DNA of 64,000 bases from Planctomycetota bacterium (GTDB lineage: Bacteria > Planctomycetota > UBA11346). Position numbers and translations under genes: made by a program. The stretch lies in the NCBI GenBank assembly GCA_025055595.1, contig JANWWU010000066.1, positions 11,147-75,146 on the forward strand, read 5' to 3'. Every line of letters begins with the position of its first letter. Within the stretch, counting starts at the first letter, position 1. Shown here one piece after another: positions 23,944 to 61,244 of the stretch. Below the pieces are notes generated by a model. It did no database searches. It was not told where the DNA came from and worked only from the letters and a program-made list of their open reading frames with translations.

Positions 23944-28494
<4,551 letters not shown>

Positions 28495-28515
28495 ACCCTC
28501 TGCCAAGGAAGCGCC

Positions 28516-29997
<1,482 letters not shown>

Positions 29998-30903: not shown

Positions 30904-31990
30904 CGGCGGCGAGCAGGCCCTGCACCCAGGAGACGAAGGCCGCGAAGGGGTAGGCGAGGCAGGCGATCGCCGTCTCCTCGGTCACCGGCAGCGGCGGGAA
31001 GCGGTCGCGCGCCAGCCGCGACAGCCGCTCGCGCATGCGCAGGCCGGCGAAGGCCTCGCGGTAGGGCGCCTGCTGCGCCGCGACCGCGACGCGGGCGTAG
31101 ATCTCGTGCAGCTGGATCAGCTTCTGCCACAGGCGGGCGATGCGAAAGCGCTTCTGCTCCGGGGTCTGGCCCTGCAGGAAGAGAAAGAGCTGCGGGGTCT
31201 CCTCCATCGCCGCCAGCCAGTGGTAGAGCGTCGGGTAGGCTTGGCCCTCCCGCGGATCGAACTCGTCGACCGCCATGTAGACGAGGAACACCTGCTTGTA
31301 GAAGCGCGCGCGGACGCGCTCGGCGAGCAGCGCCGCGAGCGCGGCCGCGCGCTCGCTCTCCGGCAGCGCCGCCAGCGAGCGCTCGGCCTCCGCGCCGAGG
31401 CGCGGGATGGCGACGGCATCGTGCCAGGTCGCATCGGCCTGCCGCTGGCGCAGGCGCTCGCGCAGCTCCTGGCAGCGCGCGGCGAAGCTCGCCGTCCACA
31501 CCAGGCTCTCGGCGAGCCGCGGCTCGCCGAAGGGCGGCAGCGGCCGCGCCAGCCGCGCCACGGCCTGGCAGGGCAGGGCGCGCAGCGCGTCGATGCCCAG
31601 CGTTTCGCCGAGGCGCTCCTGCAGCTGGCGGCGCAGCGTGCGGTACACCGCGATCGCATGGAGCTGCGCCTCGGCGACGCCGAGCCCGCTCTCGTCCCGC
31701 AGCAGGCACAGCTCGTCGATCAGCGCGGCGCGCACCGCGGCCTCGCGGTAGTGCTCGTCCTCGGCCAAGGCCGCAAGCAGCCGCTGCTGCAGGCGGCGCG
31801 CGCCCTCGTCCTCGAGCTCCGCAAGCAGCGCCGCCAGCCGGCCCTGAGCCGGCTGCTCGGCGAGCAGGCCGTCGCCGATCCCGCCCTCCGCCTCCTCGAT
31901 CAGCGCGCGATGGCGCGCGATCACGATCGGCCGCCGCGCCTCGGCGATGATCGCGGCATCGCTCGCTGCCTCGTCCGCTGCCTCGGCCAT
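30869..31990 (-). CDS. hypothetical protein
   Basis: Track ORF with balanced composition. Overlaps the downstream RNase HII-like gene by 35 nt on the same strand. No family recognised. Confidence 0.5.
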   Translation of the reverse strand: MAEAADEAASDAAIIAEARRPIVIARHRALIEEAEGGIGDGLLAEQPAQGRLAALLAELEDEGARRLQQRLLAALAEDEHYREAAVRAALIDELCLLRDESGLGVAEAQLHAIAVYRTLRRQLQERLGETLGIDALRALPCQAVARLARPLPPFGEPRLAESLVWTASFAARCQELRERLRQRQADATWHDAVAIPRLGAEAERSLAALPESERAAALAALLAERVRARFYKQVFLVYMAVDEFDPREGQAYPTLYHWLAAMEETPQLFLFLQGQTPEQKRFRIARLWQKLIQLHEIYARVAVAAQQAPYREAFAGLRMRERLSRLARDRFPPLPVTEETAIACLAYPFAAFVSWVQGLLAADDFVLPPEPKR

Positions 31991-44049: not shown

Positions 44050-44574
44050 ATGGCAGAAGCGCCGGAACAGCTCGCTCGCCTGCGCGCCGCCTGCCTCGAC
44101 GCGCTCTGCCTCGGCGCGCCGCCGCCGGCCGCCGACTGCGCGGCGTGGCTGACCGAGGTCGTGCCGCCGGGCACGGCGCGCGGCGTCGCCGAGGTCCCGG
44201 AGCCGTGGCGCGCGGCGCTCGCCTGGTGCGGGGTGCCGCTCGCTCGCGGTCCGCTGCGCTGGGGCGTCGATCTCCGCGTCGCCCCCGCGCTCGCCGCCCC
44301 GCGCCGCCGCGGCCGGCGGCTCGAGCTGCCCGCCGCCGAGCAGCTGTCCCAGCTCAGCGCGGTCGCGCTGCAGCCGCTGCGGCGCTTCATCGCCGAACGG
44401 CTCGGCTTCCGCCTGCAGATGGCGCCGGGGGTGCGGCTGTGGCTGTGGCCGGAGCGCGCGCTCGTGCTCTCGCTGCGCCCGCAGCCGCTGCTCGGCTTCT
44501 GCTACGGCCCGAGCCCGGGGCACCGCGTCTACCTCGAGCTGCCGCCCTGGGGCTGGCAGACGATCGCATGGTAG
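44050..44574 (+). CDS. hypothetical protein
   Basis: M at residue 155 of track ORF 43588..44574 (MAEAPEQLARLRAACLDAL…). Composition is moderately clean. The stop overlaps the ATG of the next gene. The alternative start at M132 (43981) is equally possible. Confidence 0.4.
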   Translation: MAEAPEQLARLRAACLDALCLGAPPPAADCAAWLTEVVPPGTARGVAEVPEPWRAALAWCGVPLARGPLRWGVDLRVAPALAAPRRRGRRLELPAAEQLSQLSAVALQPLRRFIAERLGFRLQMAPGVRLWLWPERALVLSLRPQPLLGFCYGPSPGHRVYLELPPWGWQTIAW

Positions 44575-45179
44575 ACGACAAGCGCGCCCTGCGCGCCGCG
44601 CTGCGCGCGGCGCGGCGCGCGCTGCCGCTGGCGCAGCGCGCGCGCGAGGCCGCGGCCGCCGTCGCGGCCTGCGCCCCGCTGAGCGCTGTCGAGGCCCTCG
44701 CCAGCTACGCCGCGCTGCCCGAGGAGCTCGACCTCGCGCCGCTGCATGCCGCGCGCTGGCAGCGCGGGCTGGCGGTGTACCTGCCGCGGGTCGTCGCCCG
44801 CGAGCTGGTCTGGCACGCGGTGCGCGATGCGGCCGAGCTGCGACCGGGCTACCGCGGGATCCCGGAGCCCGATCCCGACCTGCCGCTGTGCGCCCTGCCG
44901 CCGAACTGCCTGGTCCTCGTGCCGGGCCTCGGCTTCACCGCCGACGGCGCACGCCTCGGCCAGGGCGGCGGCTACTATGACCGCCTGCTCGCCGCACGGC
45001 CCGACCTGCGCAGCGTCGGCGTCGGCTTCTCCTGCCAGCTGCTGCCCGCGCTGCCGCAGGCCGCCCACGACCAGCGCCTCGGCGCCGTGCTGATCGCCGG
45101 GCAGTGGTTCCCGAGCGACGCCGTGGCGCGGCTCAGCGCTGGACGATCGGCAGGTACTGCAGCGGAATCTGCAGGATGA
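44568..45179 (+). CDS. 5-formyltetrahydrofolate cyclo-ligase (MTHFS)
   Basis: ATG within track ORF 43965..45179 (MVDDKRALRAALRAARRALP…GGGYYDRLL…). About 203 aa, typical for MTHFS. Confidence 0.75.
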   Translation: MVDDKRALRAALRAARRALPLAQRAREAAAAVAACAPLSAVEALASYAALPEELDLAPLHAARWQRGLAVYLPRVVARELVWHAVRDAAELRPGYRGIPEPDPDLPLCALPPNCLVLVPGLGFTADGARLGQGGGYYDRLLAARPDLRSVGVGFSCQLLPALPQAAHDQRLGAVLIAGQWFPSDAVARLSAGRSAGTAAESAG

Positions 45180-46131
45180 TCAGCGCCATCGCCGTGCCGT
45201 AGGCCGGACCCGGCCCCTCCAGGCCCGGCCAGCTGCCATCGGGCTGCTGGCGAGCGAGGATCGCCGGCGCCGCCAGCGCCCAGTAGCGCTCCCAGTCCTC
45301 GCGGTCCGGGCTGTGGAACATCGCCTGCGCCGCGTAGTACTGCCCGTACCAGAAGTAGTGGCCGCCCTGCAGATGGCCGGCGAGGTGGCGGCGCAGGAAG
45401 CGCAGCGCCGGACCGAGGTGCGGGTCGCCGGCGATCGGCACTCCGGCGCCGATCAGGGTCATCGCGCCGGCGGCGGCGCGCGGCACGCCCTCCGGGCCCT
45501 CGGTGCCCCAGCCGCCGCCGGCCGCGGTGTAGGTGAAGCTGCCGGTCCCGGTCGCGCAGCGCCGCACATAGGCGATCGCGCGCGCCGTCGCCTCGACGCT
45601 GGCCTGGCCGCCGATGCCGACGTTCCACGCCGCGCGCAGCGCCATCACCTGGCAGATCGTGACGCTGACATCGGCATCGATCGGCAGCGGCTGGTAGCGC
45701 CAGCCGCCCTCCTGGTTCTGGCTGCGGTGGATGAGGTCGACCGCGGCTTCGAGCGCGGCGCGGATTGGCTCGGCCGGCGCCATTCCATAGCACTCGGCGA
45801 GGAACAGCGTCGCGAAGCCGTGCGCGTACATGTTGCCGTAACCGCCGCCGAGGTAGCCGCGAGCGCGGTCCTGGCTCTGCAGGACGTAGCGCAGGGCGCG
45901 CCGGCACTGCTCGGCGTACTGGCCGCGCGTCGGCGTGTGGCCGCCGGCGAGGAAGGCCATGCCGGCGAGGGCGGTGATCCCCGGGCCCTCGCCGATCGCG
46001 CCATCGGGCTGCTGCAGGCGCGCCAGCGCCGCCAGGCCTCGGTCGATCGCCTGCTGCCAGCCCGCCGGCTCGCCGGCGTGGACGGCGGCGAGCAGGGCCG
46101 CGAGCGCGCTGCAGCGAGCGAGCAGACGCAT
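45133..46131 (-). CDS. secreted prenyltransferase/squalene-oxidase-repeat (terpene-cyclase-like alpha/alpha toroid) protein
   Basis: Track ORF. Signal peptide present. Repeated QxxDGxW-type motifs (QQPDGAIGEG, QNQEGGWRY, QQPDGSWPG). Confidence 0.7.
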   Translation of the reverse strand: MRLLARCSALAALLAAVHAGEPAGWQQAIDRGLAALARLQQPDGAIGEGPGITALAGMAFLAGGHTPTRGQYAEQCRRALRYVLQSQDRARGYLGGGYGNMYAHGFATLFLAECYGMAPAEPIRAALEAAVDLIHRSQNQEGGWRYQPLPIDADVSVTICQVMALRAAWNVGIGGQASVEATARAIAYVRRCATGTGSFTYTAAGGGWGTEGPEGVPRAAAGAMTLIGAGVPIAGDPHLGPALRFLRRHLAGHLQGGHYFWYGQYYAAQAMFHSPDREDWERYWALAAPAILARQQPDGSWPGLEGPGPAYGTAMALIILQIPLQYLPIVQR

Positions 46132-46206
46132 GCGCGCAGCCTACGACGAGGCCGCCTGCAGCCAGCGCGGCGATTGCTGGCCCAGGCAGCAGCGTAGGGT
46201 TCGTGC

Positions 46207-49200
46207 ATGGGCTTCACTGGCCAGCTCGGGTCCGTCAATCTCGCGGACATCTTCCAGACCCTGCAGGTCAACCGCCAGACCGGGACGATGACCGTCAGCA
46301 GCCCGAGCCAGGAGACGGTGCGGCTATGGTTCGCCGAGGGGATGATCGTGCTCTGCTCGGCGCCGACCGTCGAGGGCCGGCCCTTCCTGCTCCATATCCT
46401 GCTGCGCCGCGGGCTGGCGCCGGCCGAGGCGCTCGACGAGGCGCTGCGCCGCCAGCGGCAGACCGGGCAGGCGCTGCGCGATGTCCTGCTCAACACCGGC
46501 CTGATCGCCGAACCGGCGCTCGACGAGCTGGCGGTGTGGTGCGTCGAGGAGATCGTCTGCCCGATCTTCGAGTGGCAGGCCGGGCAGTTCAGCTTCGCCG
46601 AGGGCGACCCGCCGCCCGAGCTCAGCGGTCCGGAGGCGATCGCGATCCCCGCCGGCCTGCCGACGACCTCGCTGGTCATGGAGGCGACGCGGCGCCTGGA
46701 CGAGTGGCAGCGCATCCGCGCCGTGATCCCCGACGCCAACGCGCTGTACATCGTCGACAACGAGGGCCGCCAGAACCTGCGCAACGTGCAGACCGACCCC
46801 GAGCTGCTCAAGGTCCTGCGCTACCTCGACGGCCGGCACCTGCTCGACGGCATCGCCCAGGCGACCGGCTTGTCGCGCTTCGATGTCCACGCGATCGCCG
46901 CCCAGCTCGTCATCGCCGGCGTCGCGCGCGCGCGCAGCCTCGCCGAGATCGTCGACGACGCCCTGCAGCTCAAGCAGCGCGGCGAGCTGCCGGCGGCGCA
47001 GGCCCTGCTCGAGATCGCGCTGCGCGCCGCGCCGACCGCCGATGTGCAACGGCCGCTGGCCGAGATCTACGAGAAGCTCGGGCAGATCCCGCGCGCCGTC
47101 GAGCTGTACCTCGCGCTGCTGCAGCAGGCCCAGGACGCCGGCGACCTCGCGCAGGCCCGCGACTACCTCGACCTCCTCGTCCGGCTCTCGCCCGACGACC
47201 CCGACCTGCACTTCGAGCGCGCGCAGATCCTCGCCGAGCTCGGCAACCCCGAGCTCGCGACCCAGGGCTTCTGCACCGCGGCCCAGGGCTTCCTCGCGCT
47301 CAAGGCGGTCGCCAAGGCGATCGATGCCTGCCATCGCGCGAAGAACCTGCTGCCGCGCCAGCCCGATCCGCACCGCTACCTGGCGCGCGCCTACCTGCTC
47401 GATGGCAACACCGAGACCGCGGTCGTCGAGTACAAGGCGCTGTGGCACGCGCTGCTGACCGAGCAGTCGCCGCGCAAGGCGCTCGAGGCGCTGACGCGGA
47501 TCCTCGATAGCGACTGCAAGTACGCCGCGGTCAAGGAGCAGGTGCTGGCCTACGCACGCAACTCCGAGGCGGTGCGCACCAGCCGCGCGATCCGCCTGCT
47601 CGTCTACGCCGCGATCGGCGTCGTCCTCGGCTGCGGCCTGGTCGCCGGCTGGTGGTTCTACGAGCGCCACCTGCTGCGCGAGGAAGGCCTGCGCCGCCTG
47701 ACCGAGCTCGAGGCGGCGCTGCCGCACCAGCTGCAGGAGCTGCGGCACATCGCGCTGCGCCAGCAGCTGGCCGAGATCCGCGGGCACTACGGGGTGCGGG
47801 TGCCGGAGGTCGAGCTGCGCGCCAGCGCCCTCGAAGCCCAGGTGGCCGAAGACTTCGAACTGCGCGCCAGCGAAGAGCTCAAGCGCTGCGAGGCCCTGCG
47901 CGCCGCCGGCAAGTACCAGGAGGCGCTGCGCGCGCTCGACGACCTGGAGCGGACCTTCACCGCGACCCGCGCCGCCGCCGCCGTCCCGGAGGCGCGCACC
48001 CGCGTGCGCGCGGAAGAGATCGCGACCCAGGTCTACGCGCGCGTCGAGAGCGCCAAGCAGCGCTGGACCGCGCTCGACTGGGACGGGGCCCTCGCCGAGC
48101 TGACGCCGGTCCTCGCGCGCAGCGACCTGCCGGCGGCCCTGCGTCAGGAGCTGACCGAACTCCAGGTCGAGTGGCAGGCGGCGCTGCGCAGCGCGCGCCG
48201 GCTCTCCGAGCGCGCCGCCGCGATCCAGGCCCAGGGCGACCGCCGGACCGCGCTCGAGGCCTGGCGGCGCGCCGCCGATCCCGCCGCCGAGGGCGAGAGC
48301 GACCGCGCCGCCGCGCTCAGCCGGCTGACCGTGCTCGAACGCGACATCGCCGAGGGCCGGGCGCGCCAGGCCCAGGGCGCGGCGGCGCGCGGCGACCCCG
48401 TCGCCTGCTTCGCCGCGATCGACGAGCTGCAGGCGCTCGCCGGCCAGGCCCGCGGTCCGGGGCCCGGCGAGGTCCTGCAGGCGCTGACCCTGCCCTTCAC
48501 CGTGTTCCTCGACAGCCACCACACGACGCTGCAGATCGCGCGCCGCGATGGCGCCGCCGAGCAGCTGCGCGCGCCCCCCGGCCATCAGGGCCCCTGGCGC
48601 CAGGTGCTCGCCTGGCGGCTGAGCGAGCGTTGGACGCTGACCGCGGCGCGGCGCGGCTTCCTGTCGCAGTCGCTGTCGGTGTCGGCGGAGGCGCGGCGCG
48701 TCTCCGCCGACTTCACGCTGGTGCGCGGTCCGAAGTGGCGCTGCGAGCTCAGCGCGCGGCCGGTGTCGGCGCCGCGGCTGGTGCCGGGGGCGGTGCTCGT
48801 CGGCACCAACCGCACGACGCTGGAGTTCGTCGATCCCGCCCAGGGCACCCTGCGCACGCTGTCGTTCGGCGACGCCGTCGCCGAGCTGATCGACAGCCTC
48901 GCGATCCTCGGCCAGCACGGCTTCCTCGTCGTCGAGCAGCGCGTGCACGCCGTCGACCTCGCGGTGCGCGCCCGGGCCTGGGCCTGGCCGCCGCCGCACG
49001 AGAGCGGCCCGCGCCTGCTCGGCCGCCTGGCGGCCCTCGAGCATCCGCTGATCCCCAGCGTGCGCCTGGTGCTGGCGCCGGCTCCCGGCGAGCTGCTCGT
49101 CCTCGCGGTCGACGGCGAGCGCGTCGTCCGCTATCCCGGCCTGCGCTTGAGCGGCGAAGTCAGCGCCGCGCCGCTGGTCGATGCCCGCGACCCGCTGCGC

Positions 49201-49803
49201 CCCCTGGTCTGGCTGCCGCTCGGCGCGGCGCTGCTCGTCATCGACTGCAGCACGGTGACCGAACGGAACCCGCCGCGGCTGCTCGCCTCGCTGACCCTGA
49301 GCGGCGAGCTGCTGACCTCCCCGGTGCCGGCGCTCGTCGAGCAGGTCCCGGCGATCCTCGTTGCCGACAGCCGCGGCGTCGTCTCGGCGATCGATGCCCG
49401 GCCGGCGGCCGGCGGCCTGCTGCGCACGCTCGGCTCATGGACCCTGGAGAGCGCGCCGACCAGCGAGCCGATCCTCGCCGGCGACCGCACGGTGGCGGTG
49501 CTCGCCCTGCCCGAGGGGCGCCTCGCCTGCCTCGACCTCGCCCGCCCCGGCAGCCTGCGCTGGCGGGCCCCGGCGCGCCCGCTGAGCGCCGGCATCGTCG
49601 GCGCGCCGGCGATCGGCCAGCTCGGCGCCTATGCCGTCGACAGCGCTGGGATGCTGCACGCCTTCGCGCTCGTCGACGGCGCGCTGCGCTGGTCGGCGGA
49701 CCTCGGCGGCACCCCGGTCGGCGGGGTGCTGGCCAGCGACGGCGCCCTCTACATCCCGACCCGCGCCGGCCAGCTCGTCTGCTTCGAGGAAGGCGACGAG
49801 TGA
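46207..49803 (+). CDS. large multidomain protein: N-terminal DUF4388/PATAN-like domain, TPR-like helical region, single TM helix, long coiled-coil, C-terminal PQQ-like beta-propeller
   Basis: Track ORF, 1198 aa. The N-terminus MGFTGQLGSVNLADIFQTLQVNRQTGTMTV…VRLWFAEGMIV matches the DUF4388 signature. TM helix LLVYAAIGVVLGCGLVAGWWF. The C-terminus has repeated …G…L.A.D..TG..LW… blades. Confidence 0.8.
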   Translation: MGFTGQLGSVNLADIFQTLQVNRQTGTMTVSSPSQETVRLWFAEGMIVLCSAPTVEGRPFLLHILLRRGLAPAEALDEALRRQRQTGQALRDVLLNTGLIAEPALDELAVWCVEEIVCPIFEWQAGQFSFAEGDPPPELSGPEAIAIPAGLPTTSLVMEATRRLDEWQRIRAVIPDANALYIVDNEGRQNLRNVQTDPELLKVLRYLDGRHLLDGIAQATGLSRFDVHAIAAQLVIAGVARARSLAEIVDDALQLKQRGELPAAQALLEIALRAAPTADVQRPLAEIYEKLGQIPRAVELYLALLQQAQDAGDLAQARDYLDLLVRLSPDDPDLHFERAQILAELGNPELATQGFCTAAQGFLALKAVAKAIDACHRAKNLLPRQPDPHRYLARAYLLDGNTETAVVEYKALWHALLTEQSPRKALEALTRILDSDCKYAAVKEQVLAYARNSEAVRTSRAIRLLVYAAIGVVLGCGLVAGWWFYERHLLREEGLRRLTELEAALPHQLQELRHIALRQQLAEIRGHYGVRVPEVELRASALEAQVAEDFELRASEELKRCEALRAAGKYQEALRALDDLERTFTATRAAAAVPEARTRVRAEEIATQVYARVESAKQRWTALDWDGALAELTPVLARSDLPAALRQELTELQVEWQAALRSARRLSERAAAIQAQGDRRTALEAWRRAADPAAEGESDRAAALSRLTVLERDIAEGRARQAQGAAARGDPVACFAAIDELQALAGQARGPGPGEVLQALTLPFTVFLDSHHTTLQIARRDGAAEQLRAPPGHQGPWRQVLAWRLSERWTLTAARRGFLSQSLSVSAEARRVSADFTLVRGPKWRCELSARPVSAPRLVPGAVLVGTNRTTLEFVDPAQGTLRTLSFGDAVAELIDSLAILGQHGFLVVEQRVHAVDLAVRARAWAWPPPHESGPRLLGRLAALEHPLIPSVRLVLAPAPGELLVLAVDGERVVRYPGLRLSGEVSAAPLVDARDPLRPLVWLPLGAALLVIDCSTVTERNPPRLLASLTLSGELLTSPVPALVEQVPAILVADSRGVVSAIDARPAAGGLLRTLGSWTLESAPTSEPILAGDRTVAVLALPEGRLACLDLARPGSLRWRAPARPLSAGIVGAPAIGQLGAYAVDSAGMLHAFALVDGALRWSADLGGTPVGGVLASDGALYIPTRAGQLVCFEEGDE

Positions 49804-49847
49804 ACGGCAACGGCGGCGGCCGCGGCGCGTATGATCTTCGGGGACCC

Positions 49848-50453
49848 ATGCCGCAGCGCGCCTTCACCCTCGTCGAGCTGCTCGCGGTCATCGGCATCAT
49901 CGTCATCCTGATGGGCCTGGCGCTCGGCGGCGTGTCGCTGGCGCGCCGCAGCGCGCAGCGCGCGCGCACGGTCGGCGCGATCGCCGCCGTCGCCGCCGCC
50001 ATCGACCAGTACCGCAACCTCAACAACTGCTGGCCGGAGCACTTCACCGTCAGCGATGCCGTCGCCAACCATCCCCAGGCGCCGGAGGAGCTGCGCGCGC
50101 GCCGCTACGACCAGGTCTATCAGCGGGTCTTCGCGCCCGGCGGGCAGCTGCGGCCGGCCAGCGAGATCCCGCCCGAAGACTGGCGGGCGGTCAATGCCGC
50201 CCTCGCCTGGCAGCTCGCCGACCTGGCGCGCGAGCACCAGCGGCGCGGCCTCTTCCTCGACGCCTGGGAGGAGCCGCTGCGCTACCGCCCGGCGCGCTGG
50301 TACCCCTGGCAGAGCGGGGCGCGCGCGCGCATCGACAGCGACCAGCCGCCGCAGCCCGACAGCTACCAGCTGTGGTCGGCCGGTCCCGACCGCCGCGACG
50401 CCGAGGACCCCGGCGAGGGCGGCGACGACATCCCGAACTGGAACAGGCGCTGA
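49848..50453 (+). CDS. prepilin-type N-terminal cleavage/methylation domain protein (pseudopilin)
   Basis: ATG at 49848 inside track ORF 47652..50453. N-terminus MPQRAFTLVELLAVIGIIVILMGLALGG is the class-III signal/pilin motif with Glu+5. Confidence 0.75.
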   Translation: MPQRAFTLVELLAVIGIIVILMGLALGGVSLARRSAQRARTVGAIAAVAAAIDQYRNLNNCWPEHFTVSDAVANHPQAPEELRARRYDQVYQRVFAPGGQLRPASEIPPEDWRAVNAALAWQLADLAREHQRRGLFLDAWEEPLRYRPARWYPWQSGARARIDSDQPPQPDSYQLWSAGPDRRDAEDPGEGGDDIPNWNRR

Positions 50454-50460
50454 TGCCGGC

Positions 50461-51678
50461 ATGCGCCGCGGCTTCACCCTCACCGAACTGCTGGTCGTCA
50501 TCGGCATCGCCCTGCTGCTGATGGGCCTCTCGGTCGCCAGCGTGGTCCGCGGACCCTCGCTCCACCGGATGCTCGCCGCCGAGCAGCTGCTCGCCGACTG
50601 CATCCGCCAGGCCCGCCACCAGGCGCGCAGCAGCGGGCAGCCGGTGCTGCTCGTGCTCAGCCCCGAGGACGGCGCGATCAGCGGCCTGATCCGCCGGCTG
50701 CTGTGGACCCGCGAGGAGGGCTGGCCGCCGGCCCACGACGCCTTCTGGCCGGGACGCAGCGGCAGCGGCCTGCTGTTGCCCGACGCCTTCGCCGAGGATC
50801 CGGCGGCCGCAGCCAGCAGCGATGGCCTGCTCGAGGGTCCCGACCGCCTGGCGCGCGGGCTGCCGCCCGAGGCCCAGCGCGAGCTGCCGCGCCTGCTGCT
50901 GAGCGTCGCCGTGCGCCCGCCGCGCGCCGACCGCGGCCCTCTCGCGCTGCCGCTGGTCCTGGTCGGCGAGGAGAGCGAATACGGCGAGGAAAGCAGCGAC
51001 CTCGCGCGCAGCCAGCTCGGGCTGCTGCTGCTGCGCAGCGACGCCGACGCGCAGAGCGGCGCCGCGCCGCGCACCGTGCTGCCGGCCTGGGAGGTCCTCG
51101 GCTGGATCGTCGACGGCAGCGGCGAGCGGCACGAGATCTCCTCGCTCGCTCACGCCACCGAAAGCCGCGGGCGGACGCTGACCCTGGTGCACAGCGACGG
51201 CACCGCGGGCGCGATCAGCGGCTACGACCACGACGGGGCGATCGCCGGCGAGCGCTGGCTCGAGCTCGGCCTGCTCGTCGAGCCCGGGCGCCTGACGCTG
51301 TACCGCGATGGCCGGGAGATCGCGCAGCGCGCGCTGAGCGTAACCAGCCTGCGCTCGGCGCCCGGCGCGCGCGAACGCGTCGTCGTCGGCCGCATCCGCA
51401 TCCCGGGCTGGGATGCGGCGCGCTTCGCCCCGCCGGCCGGCGTCGTCTGGCTGATCGACAGCGTGCGCCTCGAGCGCCTCGGCACGGCGCCGGCGGCGCT
51501 GCTGCCTGCGGGCGTGCAGGTCGCCGCGCCGGCGCGCATCCGCTGCCATCCCGATGGCCGCGTCGAGTGCGAGGGCGAGCTCGCGCTGCGCAGCGACAGC
51601 GGGGAGAGCGCGATCGTCACGGTCTCGGGCAGCGGGCTGGTGACGAGCGCCACCCGCCTGCGTGCGGAGGACCGATGA
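50461..51678 (+). CDS. prepilin-type N-terminal cleavage/methylation domain protein (long pseudopilin, 405 aa)
   Basis: ATG at 50461 inside track ORF 50056..51678. N-terminus MRRGFTLTELLVVIGIALLLMGLSVA (G|FTLTE). The stop overlaps the next ATG (ATGA). Confidence 0.7.
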   Translation: MRRGFTLTELLVVIGIALLLMGLSVASVVRGPSLHRMLAAEQLLADCIRQARHQARSSGQPVLLVLSPEDGAISGLIRRLLWTREEGWPPAHDAFWPGRSGSGLLLPDAFAEDPAAAASSDGLLEGPDRLARGLPPEAQRELPRLLLSVAVRPPRADRGPLALPLVLVGEESEYGEESSDLARSQLGLLLLRSDADAQSGAAPRTVLPAWEVLGWIVDGSGERHEISSLAHATESRGRTLTLVHSDGTAGAISGYDHDGAIAGERWLELGLLVEPGRLTLYRDGREIAQRALSVTSLRSAPGARERVVVGRIRIPGWDAARFAPPAGVVWLIDSVRLERLGTAPAALLPAGVQVAAPARIRCHPDGRVECEGELALRSDSGESAIVTVSGSGLVTSATRLRAEDR

Positions 51679-54600
51679 GGCGCGGCGCCGCCCTCGTCCT
51701 CGCCCTGGCGATCCTCGCCAGCCTGCTGTTCCTCGCCCTGCCCTTCGTCTTCAGCCAGACGGCGAGCGTCGGCGGGGCGCGCAGCGCGGCCTGGGACCAC
51801 GAGGCGCGGCGCATCCTCGCGGCGAGCGAGCACGAGGCGGTGGCGGCGAGCATCAGCGCGCTCGCCGCCCTCGCCGCGGGCGAAGCGACGAACTCCCTGC
51901 CGCACGACCTCGCGGAGCGCGCCGGCTACAGCGTCGTCGTCGAGCACCCGGGGCGCGCCGTCCTCAGCAACCTGCCGGCCTCGGGGTCGACGCAGCGCGG
52001 GCTCGCGATCGAGGACGAATACGGCAAGCTCGATGTCAACAGCCTCGGCCCCGAGGCCTGGGGGCGCCTGTTGGCGGACCTCGACATCCCCGATCCGACG
52101 ACTTGGCGCTGGGTGTGGAGCGGGGGCCAGCCCAACGCGCAGCCGGCGCTGCTGCAGCACGGCAGCTGGCAGCCGCTGCCCTACGGCCGGCTGGCGATCG
52201 CCCTCGCCCGCCACCGCCTGCGCCTGCCCAGCGGCCGCTACCACGACCTCGCCGAACTGCTCGCCGCCGACCCCCGCCGCGCGCAGCCGGCGCAGGCGCC
52301 CTTCGGCGCCGTCGAATACGGCTCTGGCGCGCGCGACCAGGAGAGCTTCGAGCCGCTGATCAGCCGCCTGATCCCCGACTGGGAGCAGCAGCTCTTCGGC
52401 GCCGGCGGCCTGCTCGACCGCCAGGGACCCTACCGCGCTCACCCGCTGACCCGCGTCGAGTGGGAGCGCCTGCTGCCGCACCTGACCGTGCACGCCCTCG
52501 GCCAGGGGCGGGCGGGCTGCGCCGACCTCGGCACGGTCATCGCGCTGAGCCAGGTGCCGAACCACAACGACCACAGCATGATCAGCGATCTCGTCGCCGC
52601 TCCCGCGGCCCTCAACCGTCTGGTCCCCGCCTTCGCCTGGCTGGTCGGCGCGCGCCGCGACGGCCGCCTGTACCGCGGCCGCCGCCACCTCGATGGGCTG
52701 ACGGTCGAGTCTGTCGCCTCCCCGCTCGCCGATCCCGGGCTGCCGCTGGCCGTCGAGCTGCCGGCCTGGGTCAACGCCAACACGATGACCGAGCCCGTCG
52801 CGGCAGCGCTCAACGCCCAGCTGCCAAAGCAGCCGCTGGCGGCGCTCGCCGCCCTGCCGCCCGACAGCTGGTGGCCCTTCGCGCTTGCGAACACCGGCCA
52901 GCCCTCGACCTGGCGGCCGCCGCTCGCCGTCCTCAGCCTCGGCGCGATCCGCATCGAGGCGGCGACGACGGTGATGGCGGCGGGGCAGATCACCGCCCAG
53001 CGCCAGCGCCGCAGCGTGTGGCAGGCCCTGCCGGCGAGCGTCGAACGGCGCTGGCGCAGCCAGGCCGAGCTCGAGGCGCTGTGCCGCCTCGGCCTGCCCT
53101 CGGGCAGCGTCAGCGGCCCCCAGCCGCTGCTGCGGCGCAGCGTGCCCGGCGAGCTGCTGGCGGGCGACGGTTGGCTGGAGCCCGCGCCGCTCGCGTCCTT
53201 CGCCGACAACCCCGCGCTGTCGCTGCCGCAGCGCGCCAACCTGCCCGCCGACGAGGGGCTGGTGCCGGCCGGCTACCAGCGCGCCTTCTCCGCGCCGCTG
53301 GCCAGCCTCTGCCTGCTGCGCAGCGGCAGCGACGAGTTCGCCCCCCAACAGCTGAGCCTCCGCTTCGCCCTCGACGGCGAGGCCAGCGCCGCCGCCGTCC
53401 TGTTCGCGGCGCGAACCGGCGACGGCAGCGCGCCGCGCGGCCGCTGGCGGCTGCGTTGGGAAGGCGCGGGCGCCGAGGCGGAGCGCTGGCAGGGGCAGCT
53501 GGTCCTCGAGGTCGCTGGCCTCGCCCTGCCCTGGGAGCGGGACCACCCCTGGACGATGGCTGCCGACGACCCGCGCACCGCCGACATCGACGAGCGCTGC
53601 CTGCCCGGCCCGCTCTCCCTCGCCCCGCGCCGCCCCGGGCCGCCGCACGAGGAGTTCCGCTACCGGGCGGAGCTCGCCCGCGGCACGATCCACCACCTGC
53701 AGCTGTGGTACGCCGGGCCGCAGCCCGGGCAGTATGGGCTGGCGGTCGACGGCATCGTCGGCCGCGACGCGATCAGCGGCCGGGACTTCGCGCGTTTCGG
53801 CGATCACTATCCCTTCCCCGCCTTGCGCCTGGCCGAGGACATCCCGGCCAGCGACCCCCTCCGCGAAGGCGGGGCCGCGCTGAGCCGGCCCGAGCGCATC
53901 CGTCTGCTCGCCCCGCCGGGCCTGCGCCTCGCCGAGCTGCTGCCGGCGCGCGGCCTGATCCGCATCGACGACGAGTACTTCAGCTACGAGGGCATCGACG
54001 GCGACGCGCTGCGCGGCGTCCGCCGCGGGCGGCGCCAGAACTGCAACCCGACCGCGGTGATCCGCACCCTGGTCCGCCCCGGCCCGCCGGCGGAGTACCG
54101 CGACGATCCCGACCACGCCAAGCGCTGGCCGGCGACCCAGGCCCACCGCGCCGGCGCCCTGGTGCTGCCCGGCGACTGGCTGACGCGCATCGAGGCCGGC
54201 GTCGACGCCGACCGCCGCTGGCTGCGCGGCGCGACGACGCTCGCCGACCCCCTGCAGGCCGAGGCCGTGACCGAGGAGATCGACATCCGCTCCTGGCCGG
54301 TGGTCAATGGCCAGCGCCTCTATCCGAGCGAGATCCCGGTCCGCGGCCCCTGGCCGGAGCGCGGCATCCTGCGCTTCGAGGTCAATGTCAGCGAGAACAA
54401 GGCGGCCTTCGTCCGCGAGGGCGAGCGCCTGCGCCTCGACTGGCGGCCGCCGATCGCCTCGGGAACGCCCGAGGGCGCGGCTCCCCTGATGCCGCCGGCC
54501 TTCACGAGCCGCGCCAGCGTCACCATCCGCCTGATCAGCCTGCGCGTCGCCGACGACGCCGACCTGACGCACACGCCGACCACCGAGCGCCTGCGCTTCG

Positions 54601-56510
54601 CCCGCAGCGGCTGGCTGCAGCTGCTCGACCCGCAGAGCGGCCGCTGCGAGTGGGTGCGCTATGACGACCTCGCGGTGCGCGAGCCGCCGTGCCAGGTCAC
54701 TGGTCGCTTCTTCATCCATGAGCAGGGCTGGGACATGGCGCCCTTCGCGACGCCGCAGCCTGCGGCTCAGCCGCGCGGGGCCTGGCGCACGCCCTGGCGC
54801 CGCGACAGCCCCTGGCCGGCGGGAACCCGCGTGCTGCCGGTGCAGACCCTGCTGCCCGATGTCCGCGGCCTCGAGTCCGGCGATGTCTGCACCGTCGTCG
54901 CCGACCGCGCGCCGCTGCCCTGGCCGCCGCTGCAGCTGATCGTCCGCCATGCCGCCAGCGACGGCCTGCCGTGGACGAGCAGCGAGACCGGCTTCGAAGC
55001 GCCGGCCTCCTTCTTCGCGTTGACCGAGGCCGTCCCCGATGGCATCCCCGACGCGACGCTGCGCGATCAGAGCAACCGCCTCCTCCCGCAGCCGGCCGGC
55101 GCCGCCACCATCCTGGTCGGCCGCGGCTGGCGCGGCGCCGACCTCAGCCCGGTCCATCCCGTGCAGACGCGGCGCGGCCAGGGACCGCGCGCCAGCGCCT
55201 GGGGCGCGCAGGCGACGCTCGCGATCGGCGGCCCGGGCCTGCTCGTCGACGACATCGCCAGCGGCCCGCTGCTGTCCGGCCTGCTCGGCGACGCGGCAAG
55301 CGAGAACGGCTGCCGGGTCGTCGCGCTCTCCGGCGACCGCGATCAGCCGGTCGAGATCGCCGGCGAAGGCGCGCGCGGCTTCCCGCTGCGCGTGCAGAGC
55401 AACGCCGAGGTCTTCACCAGGCCCTACGGCATCATCGACATCGGCGGCGAGGTTTTCGCCTATCGCCGCTTCGATGCCCGGCACGCCGACCTGATCGGCC
55501 GCGCCCTGCTCGGCAGCGCGGCGCGCGCCCAGGGCCTGCCGAGCCTCGCCGAGCGCGGGCGCGGTGTCGCCTCGCCCGACAGCCCCTTCCACGGCCTGCC
55601 GCTCATCCCCCTGCCCTTCGGTCCGGTCGGCGAGCTGATGGGCGAGGGCCTGCTGCTGCCGGCGACGGCGAGCGCGACTGCGCTCGGGACCCGCGGGGCG
55701 CTCGGCGAGGACCTCGAGCTGTGCGACCGGCCCTACGACGAGCACCGCAGCGCGGCGCTGCCCGCCAACCCCGCGCAGCGCTCGCCCTACGAGCCGAGCC
55801 CGCTGCGCGCGCCGGTGCAGCTGCTCCACCACCCGCACGACGGCAGCGCCGAGGTCCTGCGCTTCCTCCGCCACCCCGACCTCGAGCAGGTGCTCACCGC
55901 GCCCTGGCTGCGCGGCCTCTACGGCACCGCGCCGCAGGCCTGGCAAGGGGCCTTCGGCCTGGCGCGCCGCCGTTCCTGGCGCGATCCGCTGCCCGACTGG
56001 CAGCCGCCGCCGCTCGGCAGCGGTCGGCTCAACCCGCTGGTCATCGGCTGGTGGCCGAGCCGGCCGGCGCCGCTCGCCGACCTCGGCCTCGCCGACCGCG
56101 ACCGCCACGCCCAGCTGCGCTGCCGGCTCTACGGCTGGTTCGCCTACGGGCTGCAGTGCTACGGCCTGCGCCCGCTTCAGGCCGAGGTCGAGGTGCTGAG
56201 CCTCGGCGGCGCCGAGGCGCTCGCGGCCCGCCTGCTGGTGCCCGGCGGCAGCGGCCTCGAGCTCTCGGACTGGGGCGCCATGCCCGAGGAGCTGCTGGCC
56301 GAGGGCAAGCACACCTTCGGCTTCGGACACGCGCGGCAGCGCGCCGGCGGCGCCGGCTGCGAGCTGCGCCTGCACTGGCTGCCGGCCAGCGCTCAGGGGA
56401 GCTGGGCCGAGCGCTGGTCCGCCAATCAGGGCCTGCGTCCCCGCCTCGGCGCGGTGGCGCTGCGCGCTCAGGCCGCGGTCCAGACCCTGGCTGTCGAAGC
56501 CGTCCGCTGA
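51675..56510 (+). CDS. giant (1611 aa) membrane-anchored protein with GspK-like (T2SS minor pseudopilin K) N-terminal features followed by ~1250 aa of uncharacterised sequence
   Basis: ATG at 51675 inside track ORF 50703..56510, overlapping the upstream stop. N-terminal hydrophobic anchor AALVLALAILASLLFLALPFVF. Then IEDEYGKLDVNSL, resembling the GspK DExxKxNxN motif, and helical hairpin-like segments. The rest is non-degenerate but unassigned. Confidence 0.65.
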   Translation: MRRGAALVLALAILASLLFLALPFVFSQTASVGGARSAAWDHEARRILAASEHEAVAASISALAALAAGEATNSLPHDLAERAGYSVVVEHPGRAVLSNLPASGSTQRGLAIEDEYGKLDVNSLGPEAWGRLLADLDIPDPTTWRWVWSGGQPNAQPALLQHGSWQPLPYGRLAIALARHRLRLPSGRYHDLAELLAADPRRAQPAQAPFGAVEYGSGARDQESFEPLISRLIPDWEQQLFGAGGLLDRQGPYRAHPLTRVEWERLLPHLTVHALGQGRAGCADLGTVIALSQVPNHNDHSMISDLVAAPAALNRLVPAFAWLVGARRDGRLYRGRRHLDGLTVESVASPLADPGLPLAVELPAWVNANTMTEPVAAALNAQLPKQPLAALAALPPDSWWPFALANTGQPSTWRPPLAVLSLGAIRIEAATTVMAAGQITAQRQRRSVWQALPASVERRWRSQAELEALCRLGLPSGSVSGPQPLLRRSVPGELLAGDGWLEPAPLASFADNPALSLPQRANLPADEGLVPAGYQRAFSAPLASLCLLRSGSDEFAPQQLSLRFALDGEASAAAVLFAARTGDGSAPRGRWRLRWEGAGAEAERWQGQLVLEVAGLALPWERDHPWTMAADDPRTADIDERCLPGPLSLAPRRPGPPHEEFRYRAELARGTIHHLQLWYAGPQPGQYGLAVDGIVGRDAISGRDFARFGDHYPFPALRLAEDIPASDPLREGGAALSRPERIRLLAPPGLRLAELLPARGLIRIDDEYFSYEGIDGDALRGVRRGRRQNCNPTAVIRTLVRPGPPAEYRDDPDHAKRWPATQAHRAGALVLPGDWLTRIEAGVDADRRWLRGATTLADPLQAEAVTEEIDIRSWPVVNGQRLYPSEIPVRGPWPERGILRFEVNVSENKAAFVREGERLRLDWRPPIASGTPEGAAPLMPPAFTSRASVTIRLISLRVADDADLTHTPTTERLRFARSGWLQLLDPQSGRCEWVRYDDLAVREPPCQVTGRFFIHEQGWDMAPFATPQPAAQPRGAWRTPWRRDSPWPAGTRVLPVQTLLPDVRGLESGDVCTVVADRAPLPWPPLQLIVRHAASDGLPWTSSETGFEAPASFFALTEAVPDGIPDATLRDQSNRLLPQPAGAATILVGRGWRGADLSPVHPVQTRRGQGPRASAWGAQATLAIGGPGLLVDDIASGPLLSGLLGDAASENGCRVVALSGDRDQPVEIAGEGARGFPLRVQSNAEVFTRPYGIIDIGGEVFAYRRFDARHADLIGRALLGSAARAQGLPSLAERGRGVASPDSPFHGLPLIPLPFGPVGELMGEGLLLPATASATALGTRGALGEDLELCDRPYDEHRSAALPANPAQRSPYEPSPLRAPVQLLHHPHDGSAEVLRFLRHPDLEQVLTAPWLRGLYGTAPQAWQGAFGLARRRSWRDPLPDWQPPPLGSGRLNPLVIGWWPSRPAPLADLGLADRDRHAQLRCRLYGWFAYGLQCYGLRPLQAEVEVLSLGGAEALAARLLVPGGSGLELSDWGAMPEELLAEGKHTFGFGHARQRAGGAGCELRLHWLPASAQGSWAERWSANQGLRPRLGAVALRAQAAVQTLAVEAVR

Positions 56511-56549
56511 ACGGCTCGGCATCAAGCGGGAGACCGCGCCTCCGATGCT

Positions 56550-56948
56550 ATGTCTGCGATGGACTCCTGGCTGCGCATCGGGGAAACGACCGCCTACCAG
56601 GGCGGAACGCCGCGCCAGCACAACGGCGGCACCGGTCGCTTCGCGCAGAAGCAGCGCGACGAGGGGCAGCGGCGTCAGCGCGAGTACGAGCCCGAGCCGG
56701 CGAGCGACCAGGCGCCGCCCGATCCCCTGTTGGCGGAGATCGACCGCCTGCGCGCGCTCGAGCCGACGCGCGGCGACAGCGGGGCGCGCCGCGCCCTGCG
56801 CGCCCGCCTCGCCTATGCGCGCCACCAGGATCTCCCGCTGTCGCCGCCGATCACCAGCGATGCGGCCAGCAGCGAGACGACGACCGCGGTCTGGAAGCAG
56901 CCAGCGCCGCCCGCAGCGCCCCCTGGCGTGCCGCCCGCCAGCCCCTAG
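56550..56948 (+). CDS. small hypothetical protein (132 aa)
   Basis: Track ORF. High GC3 and mixed composition. Sits in the 450-bp gap between the giant gene and fabD. No family. Confidence 0.35.
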   Translation: MSAMDSWLRIGETTAYQGGTPRQHNGGTGRFAQKQRDEGQRRQREYEPEPASDQAPPDPLLAEIDRLRALEPTRGDSGARRALRARLAYARHQDLPLSPPITSDAASSETTTAVWKQPAPPAAPPGVPPASP

Positions 56949-56966
56949 GCTGACAGTGGAGCGAGC

Positions 56967-57902
56967 ATGTCGCGAGCCCTCGTCTTCCCCGGCCAGGGCG
57001 CCCAGTATGTCGGCATGGGCGTCGAGCTGGCGCAGCGCTTCCCCGCCGCCCGCGCCCTGCTCAGCGAGGCCGACCGCGTGCTCGGCTTCGCGCTCTCCGA
57101 CATCATGGCTAACGGCCCGGAGAGCGACCTGACGCGCACCGATGTCAGCCAGCCGGCGATCTTCGTCGCCAGCGCGATGAGCCTGGCGGTGGCCGAGGAG
57201 GCGCTGCAGCCGCTGACCCGCGCCGCCTGCGCCGGCCTCAGCCTCGGCGAGTACACGGCGCTCTACGCCGCCGGCGCGATCGGCTTCGCCGAGGCCCTGC
57301 GCCTCGTCCGCCTGCGCGGGCAGGCGATGCAGGCGGCGGCCGAAGCGACGCCGGGCGGGATGGTCGCGCTGATCGGGGCCGACGAGGCGCAGGCGCGGGC
57401 GCTGTGCGCCGAAGCTGCTGCCGGCGAGGTGCTGACCGTCGCCAACCTCAACAGCCCGGGGCAGGTCGTGATCTCGGGCGCGCGCGGGGCCTGCGTCCGC
57501 GCCCTCGAGCTCGCCAAGAAGCACGGGATCCGCCGCGCGACCAGCCTGGCCGTCGCCGGCGCCTTCCACAGCCCGCTGATGCAGCCGGCGGCCGAGCGTC
57601 TGGCCGAGGCCGTCGCCGCCCTGTCCTGGCGCGACCCGCAGCGCCCGGTGTACAGCAATGTCACCGCCGCCCCGCTGACGCGCGCCAGCGAGATCCCCGA
57701 GCTGCTGGTCCGCCAGCTGACCTCCCCCGTCCGCTGGGCCGACAGCGTGCGCGCGCTGCACGCCGCCGGGATCAGCGAGTTCCTCGAGCTCGGCCCGGGC
57801 AAGACGCTCTGCGGGATGATCGCGCGCACCGTCGAGGGCGTGCAGTGCCGCAACCTCGACACCGCCGAGGATGTCCGCGCGCTGGTCGCCGCCGGCGCCT
57901 GA
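56967..57902 (+). CDS. fabD: malonyl-CoA:ACP transacylase
   Basis: Track ORF. Motifs …FPGQGAQYVGMG…GLSLGEYTAL… (active Ser)…. Confidence 0.95.
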   Translation: MSRALVFPGQGAQYVGMGVELAQRFPAARALLSEADRVLGFALSDIMANGPESDLTRTDVSQPAIFVASAMSLAVAEEALQPLTRAACAGLSLGEYTALYAAGAIGFAEALRLVRLRGQAMQAAAEATPGGMVALIGADEAQARALCAEAAAGEVLTVANLNSPGQVVISGARGACVRALELAKKHGIRRATSLAVAGAFHSPLMQPAAERLAEAVAALSWRDPQRPVYSNVTAAPLTRASEIPELLVRQLTSPVRWADSVRALHAAGISEFLELGPGKTLCGMIARTVEGVQCRNLDTAEDVRALVAAGA

Positions 57903-60527: not shown

Positions 60528-61244
60528 ATGCGCGCCTTCCTGCGCTGGCTGGCCTTCCTGATCAGTCTCGCGCTCGGCGCTTTGCTCGCCGTCTTCAGCA
60601 TCTGGCCCGAGACCGTCGAGCCGGTGATGCGTTGGCTGCGCGATCAGCCGGAGGGCCGCTGGACCGGCGCCGCGATGGCGATCGTCCTGCTGACCAGCCC
60701 GCTGGTCTGGCTGCTGCGCTGGGTGCAGGCGCAGCGGCGCAGCCGCGAGATCAGCTACACGACCGACAACGGCCGGATCTCGGTCAATCTGCTGGCGATC
60801 GAGGAGGCGCTGACGCGCGCGATCGAGGGCGAGCCCGAGATCCGCAAGGCCCGGGTCTCGGTCTACGAGGACCGCGTCAAGCGCAGCATCGTCATCGACG
60901 CCGTCGTCACGCTGTGGGAGGTGCCGAACGTCACCGAACGCAATCTGTTCTGCCAGCGCCTGCTGCGCCGCCGCTTCGCCGAGCTGATGCCCGAGCGCAG
61001 CGATGTCCAGGTCAACCTCTCGGTGCATCGGCTGACCGTGCGGCCGCCGGGGCAGGCACAGCCCGCCCGCCCGCCGGCGAGCGAGCCGCCGCCCGCGGCG
61101 CCGGCGGCGCCGCGCGCCCGCGAGCCGGAGCGCCTGCCGGCGATGACGAGCGACGACGAGCTCTATGTCGGTCCGGCGATCCCCCTCGGCGACGACGAGG
61201 ACGACGAGCAGTCGGGCAGCGTGCGCGCGCGCGCCCTCGGCTAG
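60528..61244 (+). CDS. Asp23/Gls24-like (alkaline-shock protein family) membrane-anchored protein, tentative
   Basis: M at residue 30 of track ORF 60441..61244 (MRAFLRWLAFLISLALGALLAVF…). The central segment …ISVNLLAIEEALTRAIEGEPEI…VIDAVVTL… resembles Asp23-family cores. The C-terminus is acidic and low-complexity. Confidence 0.5.
   Translation: MRAFLRWLAFLISLALGALLAVFSIWPETVEPVMRWLRDQPEGRWTGAAMAIVLLTSPLVWLLRWVQAQRRSREISYTTDNGRISVNLLAIEEALTRAIEGEPEIRKARVSVYEDRVKRSIVIDAVVTLWEVPNVTERNLFCQRLLRRRFAELMPERSDVQVNLSVHRLTVRPPGQAQPARPPASEPPPAAPAAPRAREPERLPAMTSDDELYVGPAIPLGDDEDDEQSGSVRARALG

Follow-up and report, generated by a model that had tools for sequence, protein, structure and literature searches.

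A 64,000-nt stretch of a Planctomycetota genome (assembly GCA_025055595.1, contig JANWWU010000066.1, positions 11,147 to 75,146 of the forward strand; hereafter the window) encodes an uncommon membrane protein. The gene, at 46207-49803 of the window, combines an N-terminal PATAN (DUF4388) domain with a putative transmembrane (TM) helix and a C-terminal BamB/PQQ-like beta-propeller. It heads an operon-like run of two pseudopilin genes and one giant gene. Its relatives, all in Planctomycetota, mostly keep the pseudopilin genes downstream and carry mglA and mglB upstream. This combination suggests that the protein may act as an adaptor across the inner membrane in a pilus-like apparatus.

The gene and its family

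The G+C content of the window is about 75%, and long spurious open reading frames (ORFs) are common at such composition. Codon-position G+C over the full ORF was 0.96 at the third position (GC3), 0.78 at the first (GC1), and 0.50 at the second (GC2). The GC3 frame plot kept its high value along the full length and GC1 exceeded GC2, indicating that the ORF is coding on the + strand. An exact look-up found the product to be identical to NCBI MCS6970619.1, a protein of a Planctomycetota metagenome-assembled genome (MAG) labeled 'DUF4388 domain-containing protein'. Its start, MGFTGQL..., corresponds to the MGFQGQL... start of the homologues.

We collected 112 homologues, mostly full length (about 1190-1210 amino acids, aa) and with 37-59% identity. 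Those with a named source came without exception from Planctomycetota MAGs. A scan of GTDB species genomes gave 41 family loci, in Planctomycetota MAGs only (a few labeled Kuenenia or Brocadiaceae). The same scan gave 38 weaker matches confined to the N-terminal PATAN(-TPR) region, in other phyla and in other Planctomycetota genes. A search of 1.84 billion cluster representatives with a profile of the stalk and sandwich (residues 488-845) found 16 at E <= 1e-30, and about 15 of these were members or fragments of the same family. The PATAN-TM-propeller family is narrow and confined to Planctomycetota, and the gene is a member of this conserved orthologous family, not an isolated oddity. Some members carry the automatic JGI annotation 'outer membrane protein assembly factor BamB'.

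The predicted cytoplasmic half of the protein

Pfam PF14332 (DUF4388) matched residues 4-168 with E 8.5e-25 (87.6 bits, cut-off 25), covering profile positions 1-122 of 122. The same domain is on record for the homologues. The protein belongs to the PATAN domain family, as a preliminary description made from the sequence had recognized. That description also called the domain a receiver, which was mistaken: PATAN is no receiver, and Pfam gave no Response_reg match at E <= 1 in the protein. A PatA-type response regulator, that is, PATAN plus a receiver (REC) domain, was rejected as an identity for the protein; winged-helix-like and TPR parts follow PATAN in place of REC.

The 3D structure was modeled with AlphaFold 2 (AF2) from an alignment of 52 family members. 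The mean predicted local distance difference test score (pLDDT) was 90 and the predicted template modeling score (pTM) was 0.49. In this model, the alpha-clip insertion of the PATAN domain consists of helices 60-67, 73-86, 90-97, and 102-122, placed between strands 46-51 and 127-132. The NCBIfam model NF053729 (MshE-type motif) matched residues 64-107, inside the alpha-clip, at 28.1 bits, below its cut-off of 38. An alpha-clip is also found at the N1 region of type II secretion system (T2SS) and type IV pilus (T4P) ATPases (bioRxiv 10.1101/2021.06.11.447907), and this resemblance explains the sub-threshold match. Cyclic di-GMP binding via an MshE-like motif in the alpha-clip was rejected on the score and on the loss of key residues. 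The motif, which we take to be RLGxx...G...L...Q, was compared by eye; the window protein does not conserve its Arg and Gly positions (FLLHI at residues 60-64, ALR at residues 89-91).

The winged-helix-like domain gave a weak Pfam HTH_47 match at residues 189-239 (E 6e-4, under the cut-off). It is the best-conserved segment of the family, with 67% mean pairwise identity. The TPR array behind it gave several Pfam TPR matches at about residues 284-360, of which TPR_17 exceeded its cut-off, and its mean pairwise identity was 61%.

The membrane segment and the predicted periplasmic half

A hydrophobic segment of about 23 residues follows the TPR array. Hydrophobic peaks lie at the matching position in 51 of the 52 aligned homologues. 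The Kyte-Doolittle 19-residue mean across the alignment was 1.5-2.7; the remaining homologue, P0094, fell under the listing threshold of 1.5. The segment is variable in sequence (35% identity) and has aromatic borders. Residues 466-489 were the sole stretch with pLDDT < 50 in the AF2 model, and they lie between two well-folded halves. The N-terminus of the protein is not hydrophobic, and no signal peptide is present. We read the segment as a membrane helix and the protein as bitopic. Because there is no signal peptide, because the N-terminal domains have known cytoplasmic partners (PilB and PilC), and because PEGA domains and BamB/PQQ-type propellers are typically extracytoplasmic, we infer an N-in/C-out orientation.

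A separate AF2 sub-model of residues 488-845 reached pLDDT 94.6. Behind the membrane segment it contained an all-alpha, TPR-like stalk, for which a Foldseek search against the PDB returned only non-significant TPR/BamD-type matches (E >= 0.017). A PEGA-like beta-sandwich comes next. Pfam gave no match on residues 761-836 of the window protein, and its PEGA family matched the distant homologue at locus L047 at the equivalent position.

The C-terminal propeller is of the BamB/PQQ-like eight-bladed fold class. Foldseek against the PDB placed BamB (3prw) first, with E 7.5e-12 and a TM-score of 0.73-0.76 over ~375 columns, and also returned YxaL. The family profile matched BamB chains and PQQ proteins at about E 1e-16. 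In the window protein alone, PQQ_2 matched residues 1056-1190 at 25 bits, just under its cut-off of 27.6, and PF13360 and PF13570 are on record for most homologues. Overall, BamB (YfgL) and Bacillus YxaL were the best structural and profile matches for residues ~820-1198, with 13-18% identity to BamB. BamB is a periplasmic lipoprotein of the beta-barrel assembly machinery (BAM), with no TM helix, unlike the window protein, and we take the likeness of the propellers to be one of fold. A functional BamB was rejected as an identity for the protein: TIGR03300 scored 26.8 bits against a cut-off of 285, and the propeller is the C-terminal part of a 1198-aa TM protein with no signal peptide.

The two halves differ in conservation. 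Mean pairwise identity was 54-67% in the cytoplasmic half and 29-40% in the periplasmic half, so that the cytoplasmic half is about twice as conserved.

The preliminary description had a PATAN domain fused through one TM helix to a 500-aa PQQ propeller. The helix and the propeller were both recovered. The connection is not direct, as about 290 aa of winged-helix-like and TPR sequence lie before the membrane segment; the propeller is about 350 aa long and is preceded by a 270-aa helical domain and an 80-aa beta-sandwich.

Pseudopilin genes and the giant gene downstream

The two genes that follow carry the prepilin N-methylation motif, in agreement with the earlier statement that the gene lies directly upstream of pseudopilin genes. 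NCBI names both products type II secretion system GspH family protein. With their class III leaders and the hydrophobic helices behind these, both are prepilin-type (type IV pilin-like) proteins. Pseudopilin 2 is weakly GspH-like (20.3 bits, cut-off 21), and its orthologue at locus L001 gave a weak Laminin_G_3 match. The third gene encodes a giant protein with a pseudopilin-like N-terminal anchor. The gap between the PATAN gene and the pseudopilin 1 gene is 44 nt, and that between the two pseudopilin genes is 7 nt. The pseudopilin 2 stop and the giant gene start overlap by 4 nt. The four genes lie on one strand in an operon-like arrangement. At about 75% G+C, a search of 45000-57500 for promoters and terminators yielded no informative signal.

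The giant protein gave no Pfam match, either for the window protein or for its 12 orthologues, and no PDB sequence match. A word-based search returned no homologue besides the protein itself. Its N-terminus without Glu5 is conserved in the 12 orthologues, and GspK likewise has a leader lacking Glu5. The ordered short motifs of the giant protein also resemble GspK. An hhalign comparison with GspK of E. coli covered the N-terminal 60 columns only and gave a weak match, with a probability of 33% and E 4.7e-4. The protein may be a giant tip pseudopilin or an adhesin. Its orthologues are 1600-1980 aa long, share 25-32% identity, and evolve fast. Taken together, the orthologues of the pseudopilins and the giant protein share 25-35% identity, and the periplasmic half of the PATAN protein tracks these fast-evolving proteins in its own identity.

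In relatives, a fourth pseudopilin gene (340-450 aa) follows the giant gene, for example at L001 21875-22939. In the window, the 456-nt stretch before fabD (56511-56966) was considered as its counterpart and rejected as not pilin-like. The window lineage appears to have lost the fourth pseudopilin gene.

Gene neighborhood in relatives

The relatives carry a same-strand array of nine genes, in the order TPR-Roadblock, Roadblock, GTPase, Roadblock, PATAN gene, pseudopilin, pseudopilin, giant gene, and pseudopilin. Comparison with Thermus MglA (E 3e-76) identifies the GTPase as a genuine MglA, which carries a long C-terminal extension. The Roadblock protein encoded last before the PATAN gene is MglB (E 3e-20). 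In the MglA of locus L001 (7888-9432), as in L002, L003, L041, and others, the canonical G domain is ~65% identical to Thermus MglA. The extension is 200-300 aa long, and automatic annotation often names the protein 'signal recognition particle receptor subunit beta'.

Pseudopilin genes were found directly downstream in all metagenome loci examined and, among the GTDB species loci, in 20 of the 27 whose flanks were long enough. Each of the three downstream genes (the two pseudopilin genes and the giant gene) is represented by orthologues in the different loci. In 25 of 32 loci, the gene immediately before the PATAN gene encodes MglB; genes for MglA and for two further Roadblock proteins usually accompany it. 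The synteny with pseudopilins and with mglA/mglB holds down to 37% identity. The link of the PATAN gene to pilin genes is conserved and not accidental.

The preliminary description had proposed to check Pfam domain calls and the co-occurrence of DUF4388 with pilin genes, and both came out in its favor. It had left out the most telling part of the gene context, the mglA-mglB pair and the two Roadblock genes that lie upstream in most relatives. Its broad call, a transmembrane signaling or assembly protein, agrees with a bitopic protein that joins PATAN to a predicted extracytoplasmic propeller and heads a pseudopilin run; the TPR, winged-helix-like, helical, and PEGA-like parts had gone unnoticed.

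Table 1. Features of the PATAN gene and of the three genes downstream (coordinates are those of the window; residues are those of each product)
Feature	Coordinates	Strand	Details or evidence
Whole gene	46207-49803	+	ATG start; 1198 aa; predicted bitopic PATAN-TPR-TM-stalk-sandwich-propeller protein
PATAN/DUF4388 domain, residues 1-173	46207-46725	+	Pfam PF14332 and AF2 model
Alpha-clip insertion in PATAN, residues 60-122	46384-46572	+	Four helices forming two hairpins (AF2 model)
Winged-helix-like domain, residues 181-243	46747-46935	+	Secondary structure in the model; weak Pfam HTH_47
Cytoplasmic TPR array (predicted location), residues 245-451	46939-47559	+	~12 helices; Pfam TPR matches and AF2 helices
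Putative single TM helix, residues ~462-486	47590-47664	+	AIRLLVYAAIGVVLGCGLVAGWWFY; Kyte-Doolittle peak 2.21
All-alpha (TPR-like) stalk, predicted periplasmic, residues 490-759	47674-48483	+	270 aa; AF2 sub-model
Seven-stranded beta-sandwich, PEGA-like, residues 761-836	48487-48714	+	~80 aa; strands in both AF2 models
Eight-bladed BamB/PQQ-like beta-propeller, residues 844-1194	48736-49788	+	~350 aa; 32 strands (AF2)
Pseudopilin 1, 201 aa	49848-50453	+	Leader MPQRA/FTLVELL; Pfam N_methyl 23.9 bits (cut-off 21.2)
Pseudopilin 2, 405 aa	50461-51678	+	Leader MRRG/FTLTELL; N_methyl 21.2 bits, at the cut-off
Giant protein, 1611 aa	51675-56510	+	Pseudopilin-like N-terminal anchor MRRG/AALVLALAIL..., no Glu5; 12 orthologues

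Comparison with known systems

In cyanobacterial regulators of the PatA type, PATAN serves as the output domain and binds PilB and PilC at the inner membrane, and the M. xanthus PATAN protein SgnC is required for pilus-dependent motility (bioRxiv 10.1101/2021.06.11.447907). A screen for regulators of type IVa pili (T4aP) in M. xanthus also recovered PATAN proteins among its candidates (PMC11580455). The PatA-type/PATAN regulators of T4P (Synechocystis PixE, PixG, PilG, and LsiR; M. xanthus SgnC) share with the window protein a PATAN domain with a two-hairpin alpha-clip and a link to pilus-class systems. PatA-type regulators are soluble, usually consist of PATAN only or of PATAN plus REC, and are encoded with a chemosensory system. 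In contrast, the window protein has its own TM helix and a 700-aa part predicted to be periplasmic, and it is encoded with pseudopilins.

The linkage of PATAN genes with mglA/mglB has been described (Makarova et al. 2006; Wuichet and Sogaard-Andersen 2014, PMC4316618). In loci L048-L063 and L084, from Zixibacteria, Gemmatimonadota, Ignavibacteria, Desulfatiglandales, and Fibrobacteraceae (Fibrobacterota), genes for soluble PATAN(-TPR) proteins occur together with Roadblock, MglA, and MglB-like genes, and the gene order is conserved. This order across several phyla confirms the published linkage. The soluble proteins have in common with the Planctomycetota family that TPRs follow PATAN and that MglA and Roadblock/MglB are encoded nearby. 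They differ in being about 350-460 aa long without a TM helix, and the window locus does not have their mglA/mglB link.

No prepilin-motif ORF was found near the PATAN loci of other lineages (0 of 38). Among the 32 of these 38 retrieved loci whose ORFs were examined, the architecture was matched in L047 only, and the rest encoded mostly soluble proteins. The earlier remark that DUF4388 is unusual in a TM protein was thus well founded. Relative to the soluble proteins, the Planctomycetota family has added the TM helix, stalk, sandwich, and propeller and has acquired the pseudopilin operon.

The L047 gene (316-5836) is a distant Planctomycetota homologue (27% identity) with a matching PATAN-TPR-TM-PEGA-PQQ architecture. 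Its propeller gave a much stronger match (E 1e-63 to PF13570). After this gene, and not before it, come genes for a TPR-Roadblock protein, a Roadblock protein, and MglA, and the 2.4 kb of downstream contig contain no pseudopilin gene.

The Myxococcus MglA effectors SgmX (T4aP) and GltJ (gliding) are reported to couple polarity to motility machines (PMC7519303, PMC11135422). The window protein may follow a like logic, in which a TPR-containing or membrane-embedded adaptor links the state of MglA to a trans-envelope machine. SgmX is soluble and GltJ has different cytoplasmic domains; the likeness is one of logic, and no sequence relationship is claimed.

In the PilY1/minor-pilin operon and in the GspH-I-J-K tip complexes, the point in common with the window locus is a beta-propeller protein encoded together with minor (pseudo)pilins. 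The relatives of the PATAN gene have four pilin-like genes nearby, one with a GspK-type leader. PilY1 is a secreted protein carried at the tip of the pilus, whereas the propeller of the window protein is predicted to be anchored in the inner membrane. GspK is 5-6 times smaller than the giant protein, which gave no significant T2SSK match.

A literature search, with most subscription-journal papers outside its reach, found no published account of a PATAN protein that spans the membrane, has a periplasmic propeller, and comes with a pseudopilin operon. Nothing specific was found on the combination of Planctomycetes, MglA, and pilins. PATAN binding to the pilus motor and the MglA/MglB linkage were already known; the new features are the membrane-spanning PATAN form and the minor-pseudopilin operon attached to it.

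Other genes of the window

The rest of the window contains housekeeping genes, with fabD after the giant gene. On the other side of the PATAN gene, a 332-aa protein with prenyltransferase/squalene-hopene-cyclase-type repeats is encoded divergently at 45133-46131 (-), 75 nt apart; the relatives examined do not share this neighbor. An NrpR-like regulator (PF01995, E 1e-55) is encoded at 22872-23936 (+), directly upstream of the genes for the large and small subunits of glutamate synthase (23950-29997, +). The NrpR family is known chiefly from archaea, as a nitrogen repressor. The genes at 14208-15011 (-) and 15008-15853 (-) are a diadenylate cyclase gene (DAC domain, cyclic di-AMP synthesis) and folP (pterin-binding); the cyclase gene overlaps the end of folP, and the two form an apparent operon with ruvB further downstream. 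Five more ORFs were coding by GC3 and had no Pfam match at the thresholds used: 8750-11692 (-), 980 aa; 13231-14211 (-), 326 aa; 30869-31990 (-), 373 aa; 44050-44574 (+), 174 aa; and 60528-61244 (+), 238 aa.

Discussion

The reading that we favor, tentatively and as one that falls a little short of probable, is that the gene product acts from the inner membrane as a trans-envelope adaptor and connects the polarity/motor side with a pseudopilin tip complex in the periplasm. The adaptor would be part of a pilus-like apparatus of the T4P/T2SS class. By analogy with characterized PATAN proteins, its N-terminal 460 residues would lie in the cytoplasm and dock on the extension ATPase and the platform protein (PilB/GspE and PilC/GspF type). 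Where the MglA/MglB polarity switch is encoded immediately upstream, as in most relatives, the cytoplasmic half probably reads it as well. The TM helix would lead to the periplasmic stalk, PEGA-like sandwich, and propeller. These parts would hold or position a minor-pseudopilin complex made of the two pseudopilins and the giant GspK-like protein. A fibre would then be primed only where and when the cytoplasmic side permits. Each binding partner in this scheme, and the direction in which information would flow, is a prediction from domain content and gene order.

A bolder version makes the protein an unrecognized core component of a Planctomycetota pilus or pseudopilus system, a single polypeptide that crosses the inner membrane and joins the MglA/MglB switch and the PilB/PilC motor, contacted by PATAN-TPR, to the periplasmic minor-pseudopilin priming complex and the giant tip protein, contacted by the propeller. 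We consider this version doubtful. If true, it would be the first direct structural link from a Ras-like polarity GTPase module to pilus tip assembly, and the PATAN domain would gain a defined structural role in a machine.

Several results weigh against the adaptor role. Seven of the 27 informative genomes keep the PATAN gene without adjacent pseudopilins. The window gave no tblastn match to the MglA and Roadblock proteins of the relatives, and the adjacent mglA/mglB module is absent throughout the subclade of the window (about 58% identity: loci L006-L008, L043, and P0011). No PilB, PilC, PilM-Q, GspD/E/F, or prepilin peptidase was found in the 64-kb window, whose gene calls were scanned with Pfam (one partial ORF at the window end left out), or in the 10-kb flanks of the relatives. 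This lack of nearby genes for an ATPase, platform, secretin, or peptidase is the chief weakness of all the readings considered here. Lysine and arginine residues flanking the membrane segment are about 2.6 before and 2.4 after it, which is neutral, and the N-in/C-out orientation is predicted from domain logic. PilY1 is absent from the top 50 Foldseek matches to the propeller, for which BamB is the closest fold. The GspK-like reading of the giant protein is a lead from its sequence and is statistically weak.

The same data can be read in the opposite direction. The propeller and stalk could respond to a cue in the envelope or at the surface, or to the condition of the pseudopilus (a retracted tip complex, for example), and signal to the PATAN-TPR module, which would act on MglA/MglB or on the motor. 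The protein would then be an outside-in sensor, a receptor and not an assembly scaffold. A cytoplasmic signaling module, one TM helix, and an extracytoplasmic beta-propeller is the layout of known bacterial sensors, for example propeller-linked Ser/Thr kinases, and fast evolution like that of the periplasmic half is frequent in ligand-facing domains. The pseudopilin link (20 of 27) is no stronger than the mglA/mglB link (25 of 32 loci). The latter persists in L021 and L022, both without adjacent pseudopilins, and the L047 gene is followed by Roadblock genes and mglA, with no pseudopilin gene in the 2.4 kb of contig downstream. However, with a single TM helix and no HAMP, kinase, or cyclase module, the protein has no established transmission mechanism, and PATAN is documented as an output or binding domain, not as an input relay (bioRxiv 10.1101/2021.06.11.447907). 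In most genomes the gene is tightly coupled to pseudopilin genes, which suits a structural partner just as well. We consider a sensor unlikely, with a chance that is by no means negligible.

Two further readings dispense with the pilus or with the membrane, and the conserved synteny and the conserved hydrophobic segment make both unlikely. A general scaffold of envelope biogenesis, serving outer-membrane protein or cell-wall assembly with the pseudopilins adjacent by accident, would suit the fold matches closest to the propeller (BamB) and, weakly, to the stalk (BamD-type TPRs), the seven genomes mentioned above, and the JGI 'BamB' labels on some members. It is highly improbable, as BamB is a lipoprotein of ~390 aa without a cytoplasmic part, whereas here the cytoplasmic PATAN-TPR half is the best conserved, and as the synteny with pseudopilins and mglA/mglB is kept even in homologues of 37% identity. 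The low identity to BamB and the non-significant stalk matches also speak against it. An entirely cytoplasmic protein, with the helix buried or peripheral and the propeller facing cytoplasmic partners of a large soluble MglA-linked scaffold, would agree with the neutral flanking charge. By a hand estimate with a position-independent hydrophobicity scale, the segment, with four glycines, is also borderline for insertion. Yet membrane helices typically look like this segment, a single hydrophobic stretch at a fixed place, variable in sequence and bordered by aromatic residues. AF2 packed the segment against neither half, with pLDDT < 50 only there and a low pTM despite the high mean pLDDT. The domain types behind it are generally found outside the cytoplasm, and the downstream partners are exported proteins. 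This reading is barely credible.

PATAN domains are widespread and poorly understood, and the only mechanistic data concern cyanobacterial proteins that bind the T4P motor. Since 2006 their genes have been known to lie near those for MglA/MglB, with no mechanism to explain it. In the family described here, a single conserved array brings together MglA/MglB, PATAN, and minor pseudopilins, and the PATAN protein takes the form of a membrane-spanning link. If the adaptor explanation is wrong, the family stays a well-defined, narrowly distributed membrane protein. If it is right, it would offer a concrete, testable model in which a polarity GTPase controls the site where a pilus-like fibre is primed. 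The array points to an uncharacterized fibre system in uncultured Planctomycetota, with a putative tip protein of 1600-2000 aa that has no known homologue.

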